UHGV virus genome: UHGV-0139735
DNA: 25,077 nucleotides
Reading direction: 5' to 3' (one strand)
Source of the DNA: a virus
The notes under the pieces: generated by a model
What the model was told of the DNA's origin: nothing
Database searches by the model: none
What the model saw: the letters and a program-made list of their open reading frames with translations, nothing else
Made by a program: the position numbers and the translations under genes
Shown: piece by piece, positions 2,097 to 12,654 of the stretch
Layout of the letters: the number at the start of each line of letters is the position of its first letter
Position numbering within the stretch: the first letter of the stretch is position 1

Positions 2097-2282
2097 AAAA
2101 AATGCCCTCCAGTAGAGAGCATTTTTACTGTATGTATAACCAGTGTCAATGTATGAAATCCTGCGACCATACATCTCACTGAAGCCATAATGAAGTTAGC
2201 TATTTTTTGCTATGTGAGTATGTGACTTTTGCGGTTAGCCTGCGGCTCATTGTTATATTAGGCGCAGATATAAAAGCAAAAT

Positions 2283-2474
2283 TTATCGCGAGTTTTTAGT
2301 ACAGATTTTTTTTGATTTACTAATAGTTCCATCATTGCAAACGAACTTTCCATCGGAGGTACAGTGAGAGACACCTCCCTTTTTCCCAGAACAAGGATAA
2401 TTTTTAGCATAGGTAGTTAGTGGATCTAATAACAAAGAGCATGATAAAACCACAAAAAATACCTTACCAAGCAT
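2283..2474 (-). CDS. Small secreted Cys-rich, Lys-rich peptide (63 aa); candidate lysogenic-conversion moron
   Basis: N-terminal hydrophobic signal-like segment ([23 protein letters not shown]) followed by a ~40-aa region with 4 Cys and many Lys. Strong SD (GGGAGGA) 5 nt upstream of the ATG and immediately after the repressor stop codon. The region 2200-2480 is AT-rich relative to the phage backbone. Confidence 0.55.
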
Positions 2475-2489: not shown

Positions 2490-3065
2490 TTACCTAACGT
2501 ACTTAATTGTTAAACTTATAATTTTCCCAATTATTTCAACATCTTCTATCTTGCACTCGAAGGCTCTGTTTCCACCCTCGACGAAGATTCTTCCACCGGG
2601 TAAACGAGTAATGTCACGGATCGTTATTTCGCCATCAATACTTATTACCCATTTACCATCACGTATATCATCAAATTCCTTATCACAAATAAATTCAGAA
2701 TTATTATCTGTGATTACAAAAAGATTCTTGAATGCCGACGGTAGAAATTCTCTATCGAAAATATAAAAACCGTCTTCACACAAGGCCCCATCAGATAATA
2801 CATATTTAGCAACTTCCATAGTATTTGTATTACCTGAAGTTTGCTTTGAACCATGCCCGGTTGTGAGCCAATTAAGTGAGGTGCCTGTTTCAAGGGCGCA
2901 CTGGATTACCCATTCTGCTGGGAATGAGTCACGCATGTAGCGTGTGGCGAGTGTACTTTTAGAGATTCCTAAATGATCGCACAACGCCTGTCGAGTCTTG
3001 AATCCATAAGCTTCTACCATGCGCTCTATAGCGCCTCGTCCGCCTTTCTCCAAATTCATGGTCAC
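2490..3065 (-). CDS. cI: CI-type immunity repressor (186 CI-like: N-terminal HTH plus C-terminal oligomerisation domain)
   Basis: 191 aa with an N-terminal HTH (QALCDHLGISKSTLATRYMRD). Its size matches 186 CI (~192 aa) rather than P2 C (99 aa). It is divergent from the apl/cII operon and upstream of int. Confidence 0.8.
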   Translation of the reverse strand: MTMNLEKGGRGAIERMVEAYGFKTRQALCDHLGISKSTLATRYMRDSFPAEWVIQCALETGTSLNWLTTGHGSKQTSGNTNTMEVAKYVLSDGALCEDGFYIFDREFLPSAFKNLFVITDNNSEFICDKEFDDIRDGKWVISIDGEITIRDITRLPGGRIFVEGGNRAFECKIEDVEIIGKIISLTIKYVR

Positions 3066-6667: not shown

Positions 6668-9009
6668 TGAACTACAGCTATTCCTGGAATGCTGAGAAAA
6701 AAGCAATCAATCCTTACGTAGAGACGGAAGAGCAATCTTCAGTTTCTGCGCTTTCAAACCTGATCGCTCTGTACGCTGCCGATAACGAGCAGGAACAGCT
6801 GCGCCGCGAGGCACTGAGTGATCAGGTCTGGGAGCGTTATTTCTTTAATGAATCCCGTGATCCTGTCCAGCGCGAAATGGAGCAGGATAAGCTCATTAGT
6901 CGGGCAAAGCTGGCGCATGAGCAGCAGCGTTTTAATCCAGATATGGTCATTCTGGCGGACGTTAATGCCCAGCCTTCCCATATCAGCAAGCCACTGATGC
7001 AACGTATTGAATACTTCAGCAGCCTGGGCAGGCCAAAGGCTTATTCCCGCTATTTGCGTGAGACGATTAAGCCATGTCTGGAACGGCTGGAGCATGTACG
7101 CGACTGTCAGCTATCCACTTCTTTTCGCTTTATGGCAAGCCATGAAGGGCTGGACGGCCTGCTGATCCTGCCTGAAATGAGTCAGGATCAGGTGAAACGC
7201 CTGTCCACCCTGGTAGCTGCGCATATGAGCATGTGCCTTGATGCAGCTTGTGGCGATTTGTATGTCACCGATGACGTTAAGCCAGAAGAAATCCGCAAGA
7301 CATGGGAAAAGGTGGCAGCGGAAACCCTGCGTCTGGATGTCATCCCGCCTGCGTTTGAGCAACTCCGCCGGAAAAGAAACCGCCGTAAACCCGTGCCCTA
7401 TGAACTCATTCCGGGTTCGCTGGCGCGTATGTTGTGCGCTGACTGGTGGTACCGGAAATTATGGAAGATGCGTTGCGAATGGCGGGAAGAGCAGTTGCGT
7501 GCTGTCTGCCTGGTCAGCAAAAAAGCATCTCCCTATGTCAGCTATGAAGCCGTGATGCATAAACGTGAGCAGCGCCGTAAGTCGCTGGAGTTTTTTCGTT
7601 CTCATGAACTGGTGAACGAAGACGGCGACACGCTGGACATGGAGGATGTGGTAAACGCCAGCAGCAGCAACCCTGCGCATCGCCGCAATGAGATGATGGC
7701 CTGTGTTAAAGGCCTGGAGCTTATCGCGGAAATGCGCGGTGACTGCGCCGTTTTCTACACCATCACCTGTCCGTCACGTTTCCATTCCACGCTAAATAAT
7801 GGCAGGCCCAACCCAACTTGGACAAATGCGACGGTAAGACAAAGCAGTGATTATCTGGTCGGCATGTTTGCTGCATTTCGTAAGGCGATGCACAAAGCCG
7901 GATTGCGGTGGTATGGCGTGCGGGTGGCTGAGCCGCATCATGACGGTACAGTTCACTGGCACCTGTTGTGTTTTATGCGCAAAAAAGACCGCCGCGCCAT
8001 CACTGCATTACTGCGTAAGTTTGCCATCCGTGAAGACCGCGAGGAACTGGGCAATAACACTGGGCCGCGCTTTAAGTCTGAGTTGATTAACCCGCGCAAA
8101 GGTACGCCAACAAGCTACATCGCGAAATACATCAGTAAGAACATTGACGGGCGTGGTCTGGCTGGCGAGATCAGCAAGGAAACGGGGAAATCCCTGCGTG
8201 ATAATGCTGAATACGTTAATGCCTGGGCGTCTCTGCATCGTGTTCAGCAATTCCGCTTCTTTGGCATTCCGGGGCGTCAGGCTTACCGTGAACTGCGATT
8301 GCTGGCTGGTCAGGCGGCAAGGCAACAGGGGGACAAAAAAGCAGGTGCGCCGGTACTGGATAACCCGCGCCTTGATGCCATCCTGGCTGCTGCTGATGCT
8401 GGTTGTTTTGCCACCTACATCATGAAGCAGGGCGGCGTACTGGTTCCCCGCAAATATCACCTCATCAGAACCGCTTATGAAATCAACGAAGAGCCGACCG
8501 CCTATGGCGATCACGGCATTCGTATTTATGGCATCTGGTCACCTATTGCAGAGGGCAAGATCTGCACTCATGCCGTGAAGTGGAAAATGGTTCGTAAGGC
8601 CGTTGATGTTCAGGAGGCGGCAGCCGACCAGGGCGCTTGCGCCCCTTGGACTCGTGGCAATAACTGTCCCCCTGTTGAAAATTTGAACCAATCAGGGGGC
8701 GATTTACCAGAAGCCAGTGGGCCGGAGTCGCTGCCGGATCTTCATAATCTGAGCGCGAAGGAACGACGGGAGCTGACGGCGCGGCTGAGATTGGTAAAAC
8801 CTAAGCGGCGGAAAGGGTACAAACAGCAGATTAGCAATCATCAGCGCCAGCAGCTTGATGCTGAACTGAGGTCTAGGGGGTTCGATGCGAGTGATACCGA
8901 GGTGGATCTGCTTTTGCGTGGTGGCAGTATCCCGTCCGGGGCCGGGCTGCGTTTGTTCTATCGAAACCAGCGCCTGCAGGAAGATGATAAATGGCGGCAG
9001 TGGTACTAA
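6667..9009 (+). CDS. A: Rolling-circle replication initiator, P2 gpA family (HUH endonuclease)
   Basis: HUH motif ([10 protein letters not shown]) and two-tyrosine motif ([10 protein letters not shown]) as in P2 A protein. ATG at 6667 overlaps the upstream stop (TAATG); the ORF-track start at 6616 is possible but less likely. Confidence 0.85.
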
Positions 9010-9043
9010 TGTGAGAGTATTTTATATTCATATTCAAAAATGC

Positions 9044-9073
9044 CAGCCTAACAAATCAGGCTGACATTTTTTT
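9044..9073. terminator. Bidirectional rho-independent terminator between convergent genes
   Basis: Stem cagcct / aggctg with an 8-nt loop, followed by TTTTTTT on the plus strand and an A/T-rich tract on the minus strand. Sits between the A stop (9009) and the minus-strand gene end (9081). Confidence 0.6.
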
Positions 9074-9080
9074 ACTTACT

Positions 9081-9539
9081 CTATTTAGTTTTTTCAATCA
9101 TAGTGCTTTCGGCTTTTGAATATACACTATTAATAGTGGTGATTTTTGTAGTTAATGCTATACAAACTAGACTCAGAAGTAAGACACCAATTGATATTGT
9201 ATTGTTGCTGAGTATTATATGTAGACAAATAGAATAAATTGCAACGATGACTATTGCTACGAAAACAAAGATTGCCATTAAATTATGTGCTTTGATGTAG
9301 TCCTCAGGGGTTAATATGTAGCTTATGTTTATGATTATAAATAAAATTAAAAATGCTCCCCCAATCCATTTGGGTAGGGCTGTTTCTTTTTTTGATACTG
9401 CAGGTGTGGTTCTTGGGATCGATTCTACGAAGGATTTAAGATTTCCCATGTCAGTATTGTTTAATGCTGCACTTTCTGCTTCGAATTTTGAAACAGTGCC
9501 ATCAGGAAGGGTTGTAGTCCAGCTTATTTTTCCTGTCAT
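9081..9539 (-). CDS. Small integral membrane protein (152 aa: ~55-aa soluble N-terminus plus three predicted TM helices); cargo gene
   Basis: Hydrophobic segments WIGGAFLILFIIINISYIL, LMAIFVFVAIVIVAIYSICLHIIL and ISIGVLLLSLVCIALTT. Its start overlaps the upstream stop (ATGA). Strongly AT-rich versus the backbone. Confidence 0.65.
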   Translation of the reverse strand: MTGKISWTTTLPDGTVSKFEAESAALNNTDMGNLKSFVESIPRTTPAVSKKETALPKWIGGAFLILFIIINISYILTPEDYIKAHNLMAIFVFVAIVIVAIYSICLHIILSNNTISIGVLLLSLVCIALTTKITTINSVYSKAESTMIEKTK

Positions 9540-9910
9540 ACAACATCCCTTATTCTGAATATTCTATTAAAATCAATATCAACAGCAGAGTTCGACCACT
9601 CACTCTTTTGATTATCTTTAATTAGAATTGCTTTGTTCTCGTCAAAGATTATATTTGTACCACTAAACTCAATATGAGATAGGTCTCCTCTAAATATTTT
9701 TTGCTCAACGCTTTTGAATGCATCTTTTAATGATGCACACTCTTTTCTGAATAATGGTTTGGGGCTGTAAGTCCCTAAGTTTATAACTATTACGCCACTA
9801 CCATCTTTAGCAGGGTGAATGGAGAAAGATAGCGCTAATCCGTGATAGTGGGATTGTATTTTCTTCATTAATTTACGAACGTAATCATCATACCGCTTTC
9901 TATATATCAT
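9536..9910 (-). CDS. Hypothetical soluble protein (124 aa); first gene of the two-gene cargo operon
   Basis: Intact AT-rich ORF translationally coupled to the membrane-protein gene. No family recognised by eye. Confidence 0.6.
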   Translation of the reverse strand: MIYRKRYDDYVRKLMKKIQSHYHGLALSFSIHPAKDGSGVIVINLGTYSPKPLFRKECASLKDAFKSVEQKIFRGDLSHIEFSGTNIIFDENKAILIKDNQKSEWSNSAVDIDFNRIFRIRDVV

Positions 9911-10074
9911 TTTTTTCTTAATGGTTAGTTGTTTTTCGTATATTACAATACTAATAAATATATTGTCGATTCAAATAAAACGTTGTAGCCAAGCGGAAGA
10001 ATTTTAGTTTACGGATGGTTGTTTTTTGATCTCCATAGCCGAAGGCAATCTGAACTATAGTGATCATAAAAGTG

Positions 10075-10116
10075 TTTACATTCATGGAACTACGCATATA
10101 CTGTATATGTGTACAG
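10075..10116 (+). promoter_or_regulatory. SOS-regulated promoter: -35 TTTACA, 16-bp spacer, -10 TATACT, with an overlapping LexA box
   Basis: taCTGTATATGTGTACAGtg at 10101-10116 fits the LexA consensus CTGT-N8-ACAG and overlaps the -10 element and start site. It lies 33 bp upstream of the ATG at 10149. Confidence 0.7.
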
Positions 10117-10148
10117 TGCTTTCTGTGTGTTTGGTGATAGGAGGGAAG

Positions 10149-10337
10149 ATGCAAGACTATTTTTTGGAGTCGTTGAAGCTCCAGCGCATTGATTTTTTTG
10201 TCAAGCTTGTGGCGGCTAGTGAGTGTGATGATGAAGAGAAGCGACTGGCTATCCAGTGGGTTTCTGAGTTAACGGATGAGCTGATGGCAAAGATTCGTGC
10301 TCATGAATACAACCGCTCAATGGATCTTCCCAGTTAA
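10149..10337 (+). CDS. SOS-inducible small acidic protein (62 aa); candidate antirepressor-type (Tum-like role) gene
   Basis: Strong RBS (TAGGAGGG) 4 nt upstream of the ATG at 10149, directly downstream of the LexA-box promoter. The longer ORF-track version from 10026 would span the promoter itself. Confidence 0.6.
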   Translation: MQDYFLESLKLQRIDFFVKLVAASECDDEEKRLAIQWVSELTDELMAKIRAHEYNRSMDLPS

Positions 10338-10415
10338 CAGCAGGAACGTTGCTGGCGTGAGAACTAGCTTCTTACGTCAGCAAGGTTAAACAACGAGTAC
10401 AACGAGGCGTTAGCC

Positions 10416-10682
10416 ATGGGTAAATCCAACAGCAAATTCCAGACCGTTTATGAGGGGCAGGCGCTTGAACGTGACGAACTTGGCGGATGGGTTTTGTTTC
10501 AGCGTCGTGTAGAGTATGGCGGCAAGTACTGGATGGGAATAACCATGGATGATGTGTTTTTGTTTGGCTCCGATCATCCTGTATCAGGTAGTGAGGCGAT
10601 GGTCTTCATCATTGATTATGAGGGCGAGCAGCTCAGACGGTCTTTACCCGTTGGATACACCCCACAAATGCCGCTTTTCTGA
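10416..10682 (+). CDS. Hypothetical protein (88 aa), probably co-transcribed with the SOS-inducible ORF
   Basis: Backbone-like GC content; no terminator between the two ORFs; a terminator follows at 10750-10774. Confidence 0.5.
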   Translation: MGKSNSKFQTVYEGQALERDELGGWVLFQRRVEYGGKYWMGITMDDVFLFGSDHPVSGSEAMVFIIDYEGEQLRRSLPVGYTPQMPLF

Positions 10683-10749
10683 CAACCGGCTGGGTGCATG
10701 TCTATGCTGCATGAGATCGCATGATCGTTTGAGGATCGTTTTCGCTGAG

Positions 10750-10774
10750 GCCCGCCAGAACTGGCGGGCTTTTG
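10750..10774 (+). terminator. Rho-independent terminator (GCCCGCCAG-aa-CTGGCGGGC followed by TTTT)
   Basis: Perfect 9-bp GC-rich inverted repeat followed by a T-tract, 68 bp after the 88-aa ORF stop. Confidence 0.7.
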
Positions 10775-10818
10775 CTTATGTCATGCAGGTGCATGAAAAT
10801 CGCTCCATAAAGCGGGCA

Positions 10819-10837
10819 GGCGTGGCGGGGATACGAG
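10819..10837. other. Candidate cos (cohesive-end) site
   Basis: GGCGTGGCGGGGATACGAG followed by CGCGCGCTG. Its first 13 nt match the 19-nt cohesive end of 186 as I recall it (GGCGTGGCGGGGAAAGCAT; P2 is GGCGAGGCGGGGAAAGCAC). The recalled sequences were not checked against a reference. Confidence 0.4.
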
Positions 10838-10968
10838 CGCGCGCTGGGAGGTATAAGAATGAAGTACAATTAACTTCACTTTGTTGAGTAAAATGCTATA
10901 AGAATAATGCAAATTATTGAGTCCCATTAGTTCAAAACTTAGGGATATCTTATGTGAAAGGAGGTTAT

Positions 10969-12654
10969 ATGTTAGATAAATTGATTTTTAATTCAGGAAG
11001 TAATCCAACATCTAAATCTTCATTATCGGTTGACTTGACTCCATTGACAATTTTTGTGGGGCCGAATAATAGTGGTAAATCTAGAGCTTTAATCGATATA
11101 GAAAATCAACTGACAACCCGAAATGCAGCGCAGGGAGAAGTAATAAAACAGATATTAATCAAACCACTTTCTGAGGATGAAGCAAAAAAGGAAATTGAAT
11201 CTTTACAAGTTGAGCCAAACCAGGATGAAAAGCATGCGGGGCATGTTGTTTTATCTAGGCTAAACCTCCGTGGTGAAGGAATATCTAGGATTCTAGTGTA
11301 TTTGGATGGAATGTTAAGAGAATTCCAGCAACCCAATGAATTAAATCGGGAGCATCTATATCAATATTACTCGTTGCTGACTCTAAGGTTGGATGGTAGA
11401 AGTCGACTTTCCTTAACTTCAAGTCAAGGTTCATCCGATTTACAAGGAGAACCTACGAATAACCTTTCATTTCTTTTTAAAAATAATAAAGCAAGGATGG
11501 AGCTAAGAGATATCGTTTTTGATGCTTTCGGGAAGTATCTTGTTATTGATCCAACAAATATAGGTTATCTTAGAATTCGTCTTTCTGAGCGCGCTCCTGA
11601 GACTGAACAAGAAGAAAGAGGTTGGGATGAAAAGTCAGTGCTTTTTCATTCAAAAGCGTCATTGATTACAGAGGCTAGCGATGGTGTTAATGCTTTTGTT
11701 GGGATGATGATTTCGCTGATAGTTGGCTCACCAAAGGTGACTCTAATTGATGAGCCGGAAGCTTTTTTACATCCATCCTTATGCTCAAAGTTAGGAAAGG
11801 AAATATCTAGGATTAGTGCTCATAGTAATAAAAATGTGTTTATTTCAACGCATAGCGCTAATTTTTTAATGGGTTGTGTTCAAGGTAAAGTGCCATTGAA
11901 TATAGTTAGGCTTACTTTTGATGGTAAATCTGGTACGTCTAGATTACTAACAAAGGAACAATTGACGCCGCTCATGAGAAATCCGTTATTAAGATCTATT
12001 GGTGTGCTAAACGCATTGTTTTATAATTACGTTGTCGTTACTGAAGCGGATGCAGATAGGGCATTTTATCAAGAGATTAATGAGCGCTTATTGGCTGCTG
12101 GAGATCCTCGGGGTATTGAGGGATGCCTGTTTTTGAATGCTCAAAACAAACAAACTGTTTGGGATATAGTAAAACCCCTTCGTGAGCTAGGTATTCCCTG
12201 CGTTGGAGTGGTAGATATCGATATATTGAAGGAGGGAGGAGTTGTATGGAAAAAACCAATGCTTGGAGCTTTTTTTCCAGAAATGAAGCATGAAACTTTA
12301 GGTTTGGAAAGACAAAAGCTTTTTCAAGCCTTCAAAAATACGAATAAAAATATGAAGACAGATGGGGGCCTCTCCTTGTTATCGGGTTCAGATAAAACCG
12401 CCTGCTCTGAGTTTTTTAAATCCCTTTCAGATTATGGGGTTTTTGTCGTTCCAACGGGCGAGATCGAGTCTTGGTTGCAAAATCTTGAAATAGGTCGAGG
12501 AAAGAATACTTGGTTAACAAGTATTTTCGAGAAGATGGGGGATGATCCTAATGATGAATCATATGTGAAGCCATCTGAAGGTGATGTTTGGGATTTTATT
12601 GGGAATATAAAGCACTGGTTGGTTAACCCTGAAAGGAAGGGTATTCCCGAGTGA
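10969..12654 (+). CDS. OLD-family ABC-type ATPase with C-terminal TOPRIM nuclease domain (P2 Old-like anti-phage defence protein)
   Basis: 561 aa from the ATG at 10969 (RBS AAAGGAGG). Walker A GPNNSGKS, Walker B/D-loop VTLIDEPEAFLHPS, H-loop ISTHSAN, and C-terminal Toprim-like acidic motifs VVVTEADAD and VGVVDID. AT-rich relative to the backbone. Confidence 0.7.
   Translation: MLDKLIFNSGSNPTSKSSLSVDLTPLTIFVGPNNSGKSRALIDIENQLTTRNAAQGEVIKQILIKPLSEDEAKKEIESLQVEPNQDEKHAGHVVLSRLNLRGEGISRILVYLDGMLREFQQPNELNREHLYQYYSLLTLRLDGRSRLSLTSSQGSSDLQGEPTNNLSFLFKNNKARMELRDIVFDAFGKYLVIDPTNIGYLRIRLSERAPETEQEERGWDEKSVLFHSKASLITEASDGVNAFVGMMISLIVGSPKVTLIDEPEAFLHPSLCSKLGKEISRISAHSNKNVFISTHSANFLMGCVQGKVPLNIVRLTFDGKSGTSRLLTKEQLTPLMRNPLLRSIGVLNALFYNYVVVTEADADRAFYQEINERLLAAGDPRGIEGCLFLNAQNKQTVWDIVKPLRELGIPCVGVVDIDILKEGGVVWKKPMLGAFFPEMKHETLGLERQKLFQAFKNTNKNMKTDGGLSLLSGSDKTACSEFFKSLSDYGVFVVPTGEIESWLQNLEIGRGKNTWLTSIFEKMGDDPNDESYVKPSEGDVWDFIGNIKHWLVNPERKGIPE

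Follow-up and report, generated by a model that had tools for sequence, protein, structure and literature searches.

Tum systems described so far and the operon of UHGV-0139735

In phage 186, the SOS operon transcribed from p95 comprises tum and orf97 (Shearwin et al., 1998, and Brumby et al., 1996, as cited in PMC3121763 and PMC7708051), and p95-tum is the induction module of the phage (PMC7708051). The Tum protein binds the CI repressor and blocks its binding to the operators (cited in PMC3121763). Tum consists of 146 amino acids (aa) and resembles an antirepressor fused to DinI (Lemire et al., PMC3121763). In Fels-2 and PSP3, tum is divided into two genes by a stop codon (PMC3121763), and in PSP3 the upstream half has antirepressor activity (personal communication via Bunny et al., 2002, as cited in PMC3121763). 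In DuoHS, a P2-like prophage of Escherichia coli HS, the in-frame removal of the tum gene (its locus tag, ECHS_RS04495, is given in the supplement) abolished mitomycin C-induced lysis and the formation of virions, seen as virion foci, and lexA(Ind-) had the same effect (Phollow study, PMC12055606). Here we describe the corresponding operon of the virus genome UHGV-0139735, a stretch of 25,077 nucleotides (nt) hereafter called the window. The operon comprises a promoter with a LexA box, from position 10075 on, and two small open reading frames (ORFs), ORF62 and ORF88.

The system itself is known from 186, PSP3, Fels-2, and DuoHS; new are the allele and the arrangement, with one LexA box, no dinI, and ORF88 as cargo. 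It is highly probable that the promoter is repressed by LexA and relieved by the SOS response, and that ORF62, a Tum protein, sequesters CI and thereby frees the early lytic promoter; this confidence applies to ORF62 and its promoter. In the lysogen, host LexA bound to the single SOS box over the -10 element and start site would keep the promoter off. Upon DNA damage, activated RecA would bring about LexA self-cleavage and the promoter would be switched on. ORF62, a helical-hairpin antirepressor of the Tum/TumA type, would then bind CI and prevent its binding to the operators, and the early lytic promoter would be derepressed, leading to lytic growth. The transcript would read through a conserved stem-loop into ORF88, a presumably co-induced cargo gene, and end at a terminator before cos. 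Direct contact between ORF62 and CI is proposed by analogy with the biochemistry of 186, while the SOS inducibility of the window prophage through ORF62 is expected from the genetics of DuoHS.

The same logic, in which a LexA-repressed small antirepressor neutralizes a non-cleavable repressor, is found in GfoA and GftA of the Gifsy prophages, FsoA of Fels-1, AntC of N15, and Ant of SPC32H. Unlike the proteins of the 186 group, these antirepressors have no detected sequence relationship to the window proteins and act on other repressor families.

ORF62 and the Tum protein of DuoHS

The window represents a P2-like (Peduoviridae) prophage of the 186/Fels-2/DuoHS type integrated beside rcdA in E. 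coli. Its operon is located between replication gene A and cos and reads towards cos, which is the position of tum in 186. ORF62 (10149-10337, plus strand; 62 aa) was assigned to the TumA-type antirepressors by homology, profiles, and a structural model, as the ortholog of DuoHS tum and of Fels-2 STM2728. It was 89% identical over 62 aa (7 differences) to the product of ECHS_RS04495, a 62-aa "hypothetical protein" encoded directly after gene A, and 87-90% identical to STM2728. The CI, Apl-like, and CII proteins of the window were 98.4%, 100%, and 99.4% identical, respectively, to those of DuoHS, and the two prophages share the rcdA attachment site. Because of the identity to a validated tum, the common rcdA site, and the near-identical CI, Apl-like, and CII proteins, ORF62 is, as far as the sequence tells, the antirepressor Tum of a prophage with DuoHS immunity. 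It presumably targets the CI immunity repressor of the 186 type (2490-3059, minus strand; 189 aa), which was recognized by its annotation and by its identity to DuoHS CI.

DuoHS tum also lies between gene A and cos and has the same -35 and -10 elements with a LexA box over the -10. Differences between the two prophages concern the surroundings of this gene. DuoHS has two overlapping LexA boxes rather than one, and downstream of its tum come a DinI-like gene and an ORF of 225 aa, whereas in the window dinI is missing and ORF88 comes next. Unlike DuoHS, the window prophage carries an AT-rich insert 5' of the promoter and a gene for an OLD-family nuclease after cos.

ORF62 homologs of 62-63 aa were found right after gene A, mostly followed by a DinI-like gene, in Fels-2, SopEPhi, RE2010, Cartapus, 813R9, and many Klebsiella prophages. 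The exact ORF62 sequence was present on at least 1000 contigs and that of ORF88 on 980. The tumA-ORF88 arrangement was found by megablast in at least 17 complete E. coli genomes; such genome counts are lower bounds, since short queries overlook relatives of ~85% identity. Other E. coli strains, e.g., HZ13, carry tumA and ORF88 at ~91% identity without the AT-rich insert upstream.

The AlphaFold2 model of ORF62 (predicted local distance difference test [pLDDT] score of 90) was an acidic two-helix hairpin, with helices at residues 2-23 and 28-58 and a conserved Cys26 in the turn. A fold search with this model returned generic helical hairpins only, and the ORF62 profile had no match when run against the sequences in PDB. 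No model in Pfam or NCBIfam matched ORF62, and PADLOC found nothing for it. The Shine-Dalgarno sequence AGGAGGG was read from the sequence at 10139-10145 (plus strand), and the motif ATAGGAGG(G/A)AA(G/A)ATG is kept in relatives. A 103-aa extension of ORF62 from a TTG start (10026-10337) was ruled out, since it would cross the promoter and the LexA box.

UniRef and some phage records name proteins identical or nearly identical to ORF62 "Levan regulatory protein (RlsC)", which is probably a propagated label hiding the Tum function; for Erwinia amylovora, PMC3445560 lists rlsC as activating the expression of levansucrase. The value of ORF62 lies mainly in annotation. Tum proteins of the Fels-2/DuoHS type form a family without a Pfam or NCBIfam model and appear as "hypothetical" or, wrongly, as levan regulatory proteins in thousands of enterobacterial genomes. 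Yet whether these widespread P2-like prophages react to DNA damage, such as that caused by antibiotics, is decided by these proteins.

Promoter and LexA box

ORF62 is preceded by a sigma-70 promoter (10075-10102, plus strand), the equivalent of p95 of 186, with the -35 element TTTACA at 10075-10080, a spacer of 16 nt, and the -10 element TATACT at 10097-10102 (10/12 matches). A single LexA box, the 20-mer TACTGTATATGTGTACAGTG (10099-10118), overlaps the -10 element and the predicted transcription start. In its core, CTGTATATGTGTACAG (10101-10116), the CTGT-N8-ACAG palindrome is perfect, and the 20-mer has three mismatches to the consensus. A search with the 20-mer consensus allowing ≤3 mismatches yielded one match in the window and none in 100 shuffles.

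The box was also evaluated by a heterology-index-like score, with a matrix derived from a set of 21 SOS boxes of E. coli; the values are approximate and indicative only. The tum box scored 4.95, similar to the recA box (5.04), with the 21 known boxes ranging from 0.6 to 9.3. Across 30 block-shuffled windows the best site scored 11.5 on average, the lowest single value being 5.4, and only one site of the window besides the tum box scored <11.

Conservation was assessed in 38 tum loci, 28 of them from different enterobacterial species and the others from phages and prophages, including 186 and PSP3. A LexA box over a TATACT-like -10 element, 3' of a TTTACA-like -35 element, was present in 36 of these loci; one of the two exceptions was a cut-off contig and the other had a degenerate box. 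The LexA box of the window is beyond chance because it is unique in the window, absent from the shuffles, similar to recA in score, and conserved in the related loci, and LexA is predicted to bind at 10099-10118. The promoter, the box, the 62-aa ORF with its strong ribosome-binding site, the 88-aa ORF, the GC-rich terminator, and the nearby cos were all found where an earlier note on this DNA had put them. The SOS-to-induction link which that note had proposed for the 186 tum position gained support from the identities to DuoHS tum and CI.

Most loci of the Fels-2/DuoHS type (L001, L002, L003, L007, L008, and most of L011-L031) contained two overlapping LexA boxes (CTGT-N8-ACAGTGG-N8-ACAG). 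Overlapping double LexA boxes are also known from colicin promoters. One LexA box was found in the window, 186, PSP3, ESSI-2, ESSI2_ev015, and loci L032-L037. In appearance, the box of the window combines the left half of box 1 with the right half of box 2.

Relationship to 186 Tum and PSP3 TumA and the missing DinI-like gene

The window resembles 186 in having a promoter with a LexA box over the -10 element between gene A and cos, and in having a structure (stem-loop or partial terminator) after the first cistron, then a cargo gene that varies, and a terminator before cos. The cargo gene is orf97 in 186 and ORF88 in the window. In 186 the first product inactivates the non-cleavable CI by binding, and the same is proposed for the window. 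On the other hand, 186 Tum is a fusion with a DinI-like half, and ORF62 matches residues 5-44 only, at the profile level.

A search of the N-terminal 69 residues of 186 Tum against PHROGs revealed matches to phrog_1993, the TumA family (1.9e-23), to phrog_8554 (3e-12), and to phrog_698, the family of ORF62 (6.4e-6), in register at positions 7-44 of both. ORF62 itself belonged to phrog_698 ("unknown function"; 2.8e-36) and also matched phrog_8554 (4e-8) and phrog_1993 (2e-3). The comparison of a 9-sequence ORF62 alignment with a 12-sequence alignment of Tum N-termini and TumA by hhalign gave E = 7e-5, with columns 5-42 on 5-42; the pairing included Cys26, which is invariant, and the A-L/I pair at positions 34-35. 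Judged by profiles and synteny, ORF62 is remotely homologous to PSP3 TumA and to 186 Tum in its N-terminal half.

The split organization of tum is documented in several relatives. In four loci (L015, L021, L026, and L028), the ORF62 homolog and dinI were in one frame with a single stop codon between them, collinear with the fused Tum of 186. In the Fels-2 record the DinI gene is labeled as similar to "TumB [PsP3]", and in the PSP3 record tumB is described as dinI-like, while tumA carries the annotation "similar to 5' end 186 tum; UV induction of prophage". Fels-2 (STM2728 and the DinI-like STM2726.1) and PSP3 (TumA and TumB) thus share with the window a split tum with a small upstream antirepressor gene and a LexA-controlled promoter, but they have retained the DinI-like downstream half. 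PSP3 TumA also differs from ORF62 in belonging to another subfamily (phrog_1993), with similarity by profiles only.

Searches of Pfam and NCBIfam gave no match to the DinI profile (PF06183) for either ORF62 or ORF88, in agreement with the earlier note, which had seen no resemblance of the two ORFs to the DinI-like C-terminus of Tum. Its further suggestion that the effector may be a different kind of small protein was not borne out, since ORF62 is homologous to PSP3 TumA and to Tum in its N-terminal half. The note had compared only with the DinI-like C-terminal half, which is a separate gene in Fels-2-type phages and is missing here. Both ORFs had been considered unknown; this agrees with RefSeq, where both are labeled "hypothetical", but ORF62 is of a kind known in the literature as DuoHS tum.

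The site of the lost DinI-like gene (tumB) could be located by BLAST against relatives. The homologous segments were tumA (10106-10325), the sequence 3' of dinI in 813R9 and Cartapus (10342-10414), and the region from the terminator to cos (10694-10844), which was 91-94% identical to Fels-2, DuoHS, and 813R9. At the junction (10326-10341, plus strand; 16 nt), the 3' end of tumA abuts the post-dinI sequence of 813R9 and Cartapus. Neither blastx nor Pfam detected DinI-like sequence in the operon region. Among the Fels-2-type tum loci, 14 of 36 lacked dinI, and ESSI-2 and ESSI2_ev015 have tumA alone. A DinI-like domain or gene is common in Tum modules, but is not required for antirepression. The SOS operon is modular: it can have one LexA box or two, it can do without the DinI-like gene, and its downstream cargo gene is swapped between phages.

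ORF88, a second gene of the operon

ORF88 (10416-10682, plus strand; 88 aa) has the ribosome-binding site GAGG at 10404-10407 and was assigned to phrog_2100 ("unknown function"). Its model (pLDDT of 83) contained a four-stranded sheet and a C-terminal helix and had no fold match; Pfam, NCBIfam, and PADLOC gave nothing for this protein, and its family has no relative in the PDB. An exhaustive HMMER search of 1.84 billion representatives returned 34 clusters only. A profile search found at least 500 clusters at 90% identity, all enterobacterial, and almost every named one was "hypothetical". Two long repeat proteins among the matches (P0245 and P0271) were of low complexity or of the LVIVD-repeat type and look spurious.

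A gene of this family was located 3' of tumA or dinI in 11 of 36 tum loci. Members are also carried by P22-like phages, as in SE1, where the gene lies in the ea region, and by plasmid prophages of the SSU5 type. The association with LexA was examined in 85 distinct upstream regions of IMG/VR loci (L041-L207) obtained with single-protein queries, a strong box being defined by a score of ≤8. A link to LexA was found in 82 of these viral loci, across P2-like, P22-like, and SSU5-like phages: in 59, the gene had its own strong LexA box, consistently placed ~35 nt 5' of the ATG, and in 23 it was located within 600 nt 3' of a LexA box, mostly behind tumA and dinI. The remaining three loci had no LexA box, one of them being clipped by the contig end. 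As a control, 18 of 2136 windows of 150 nt from the same loci met the LexA-box score. The ORF88 family thus appears to be almost always under LexA control.

This regularity supports the co-transcription of ORF88 with ORF62, which is also predicted from the absence of a terminator-like T-run between the two genes and the good ribosome-binding site of ORF88. The distribution suggests that the function of ORF88 is linked to the SOS response and independent of the particular repressor type. Most likely, ORF88 does not belong to the CI switch but is an SOS-induced accessory protein whose target is the host or another element.

It could be argued that ORF88, alone or together with ORF62, is the true induction effector, a second antirepressor replacing the DinI-like gene. 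ORF88 shares the LexA-controlled transcription unit with ORF62, the control by LexA is a property of its family, and the family size of ~85 aa is similar to those of the small antirepressors Ant of SPC32H (86 aa) and GftA of Gifsy (73 aa). However, the DuoHS operon has no ORF88 homolog, yet deletion of tum alone ends induction there, and the ORF88 family spans P2-like, P22-like, and SSU5-like phages with unrelated immunity systems. These points make such a role of ORF88 improbable. As candidate relatives, both GftA of Gifsy-2 (hhalign E = 0.52) and SPC32H Ant (E = 0.57) were rejected.

Tentatively, and with the odds rather against it, phrog_2100 may represent an unrecognized, widespread family of ~85-aa phage proteins of the SOS regulon with a new damage-induced function. 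The options are modulation of RecA and the SOS response in place of DinI, or antirepression in trans of co-resident prophages. LexA control would then have been acquired independently in P2-like, P22-like, and SSU5-like phages, either as an own box or by placement in the tum operon behind a covarying stem-loop. Being nearly always LexA-controlled in three unrelated phage lineages, the ORF88 family may well provide a new phage effector linked to SOS; together with the putatively LexA-controlled int promoter described below, it is the lead of most interest.

Stem-loop, terminator, and cos

The intercistronic region contains a stem-loop (10345-10387, plus strand; -31.4 kcal/mol, z = -4.6) with a 15-bp core formed by 10349-10363 and 10369-10383 and with no U-tract. 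Compensatory changes were observed in 7 of its 17 pairs among 12 relatives. It is placed like t95a, the partial terminator after tum in the 186 record, and may attenuate or process the transcript. The stem-loop is followed by the nearly invariant leader of ORF88, GGTTGAACAACGAG-N-GCGAGGCGTTAGCC-ATG, also given as GGTTAAACAACGAG...CGAGGCGTTAGCC-ATG. An Rfam scan of 9900-11000 found nothing credible.

The operon ends with a GC-rich intrinsic terminator (about 10744-10779, plus strand; -23.8 kcal/mol), the equivalent of t95b of 186, formed by GGCCCGCCAG-AAC-TGGCGGGC and followed by TTTTGCTT. A simple terminator scan overlooked it because its T-run consists of TTTT and then GCTT only. The cohesive end of cos, GGCGTGGCGGGGATACGAG (10819-10837), was identified by aligning the window to the 186 genome at its right end and lies ~40 nt beyond the terminator. 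The genome records of 186 and PSP3 end with ...CCCATAAAG(T/C)GGGCA, and in the window the cohesive end comes after CCATAAAGCGGGCA, whose last position is 10818. The cut site is probably located just 3' of ...CCATAAAGCGGGCA.

Integrity of the operon

Several observations weigh against SOS-controlled antirepression by ORF62. The score of its LexA box depends on an approximate matrix, and repression may be looser with one box than with two overlapping ones, as in DuoHS and Fels-2. The seven residues that differ from DuoHS Tum include the last four, and this exact allele is known from sequence alone. Pairwise BLASTP of ORF62 with 186 Tum or PSP3 TumA gave no alignment, for which reason no likeness to 186 Tum was visible to the earlier note, and the hhalign probability for ORF62 and the Tum N-terminus/TumA was only 63%. 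The DinI-like protein modulates SOS induction according to the 186 record, and without its gene the kinetics of induction may differ. Attenuation at the stem-loop, if it occurs, would limit expression of ORF88.

The operon might even be a decayed remnant that has lost proper SOS control, having lost dinI and one LexA box and gained an AT-rich insertion upstream. The clean absence of dinI, the single box in place of tandem boxes, and the presence of ~1 kb of DNA of 33% GC with two minus-strand ORFs between gene A and the promoter would fit this explanation. Nevertheless, the promoter, the box, the ribosome-binding site, and both ORFs are intact, the exact sequences and their arrangement recur on many contigs and in complete genomes as described above, and the rest of the prophage in the window appears complete. 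Loss of dinI is shared with other related loci, including the phages ESSI-2 and ESSI2_ev015, and 186 and PSP3 also function with a single box. Decay is thus quite unlikely, and even less probable than an effector role of ORF88. That ORF62 is a host-directed levan regulator with no role in prophage induction is, judged without the RlsC sequence of E. amylovora, hardly credible, since the RlsC name is an electronic label only, E. coli is not known to have a levansucrase system, ORF62-type genes always follow a LexA box and lie between gene A of the phage and cos, and the DuoHS genetics place such a gene in induction.

CI recognition and a second LexA box at int

The CI of the window was only 32% identical to 186 CI (E = 1e-37). 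Compared with Fels-2 CI (L210), the overall identity was 40%, yet a stretch of the N-terminal domain, RDSFPAEWVIQCALETG, was identical, and the Tum proteins of the two phages are ~87-90% identical. 186 CI (L040) differs in this stretch, and 186 Tum is divergent too. This correlation hints that Tum may recognize the N-terminal domain of CI.

A second strong LexA box, TACTGTATGTATAACCAGTG (2126-2145), scored 3.75 with the same approximate matrix, better than the tum box. On the minus strand, it is located between a perfect -35 element, TTGACA, and the -10 element TAAAAT, ~30 nt 5' of the ATG of int, which starts at 2096. The box is also present in DuoHS (L039:2835), but not in 186 or Fels-2, where int directly follows cI. 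This position suggests that the int promoter (about 2100-2160, minus strand) is SOS-controlled, in which case DuoHS-type prophages would link integrase supply to the SOS response as well.

Between CI and the int promoter with its LexA box, a hypothetical 63-aa ORF (2283-2474, minus strand) was found, with a signal-peptide-like N-terminus and several cysteines. This ORF has a counterpart in DuoHS.

Other features of the prophage

A 2-kb test stretch of the window was 100% identical to the chromosomes of E. coli strain EC11 (NZ_CP073360) and 14 further complete genomes. According to the RefSeq annotation of EC11, the early part consists of int, a small ORF, CI, an Apl-like gene, CII, and Fil, with the Apl-like and CII genes beside CI, followed by other early genes and replication gene A, which ends at 9009. 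Then come two minus-strand hypothetical genes (9081-9910), ORF62, ORF88, an "ATP-dependent nuclease", the portal and terminase genes, and the rest of the late genes.

DuoHS, Fels-2, and HZ13 lack the AT-rich insert of ~1 kb (about 9010-10000; 33% GC) that separates gene A from the tum promoter. Its two genes encode a membrane-like protein of 152 aa (9081-9539, minus strand) and a 124-aa protein of phrog_18061 (9536-9910, minus strand); PADLOC gave no match for either. Just beyond cos, a low-GC block contains the gene for an OLD-family ATPase/TOPRIM nuclease (10969-12654, plus strand), which was recognized by PADLOC (Old, 1.3e-20) and by the Pfam domains AAA_15, AAA_21, and OLD-like TOPRIM. It is a cargo gene of the defense type, and relatives hold other genes at the same hot spot.

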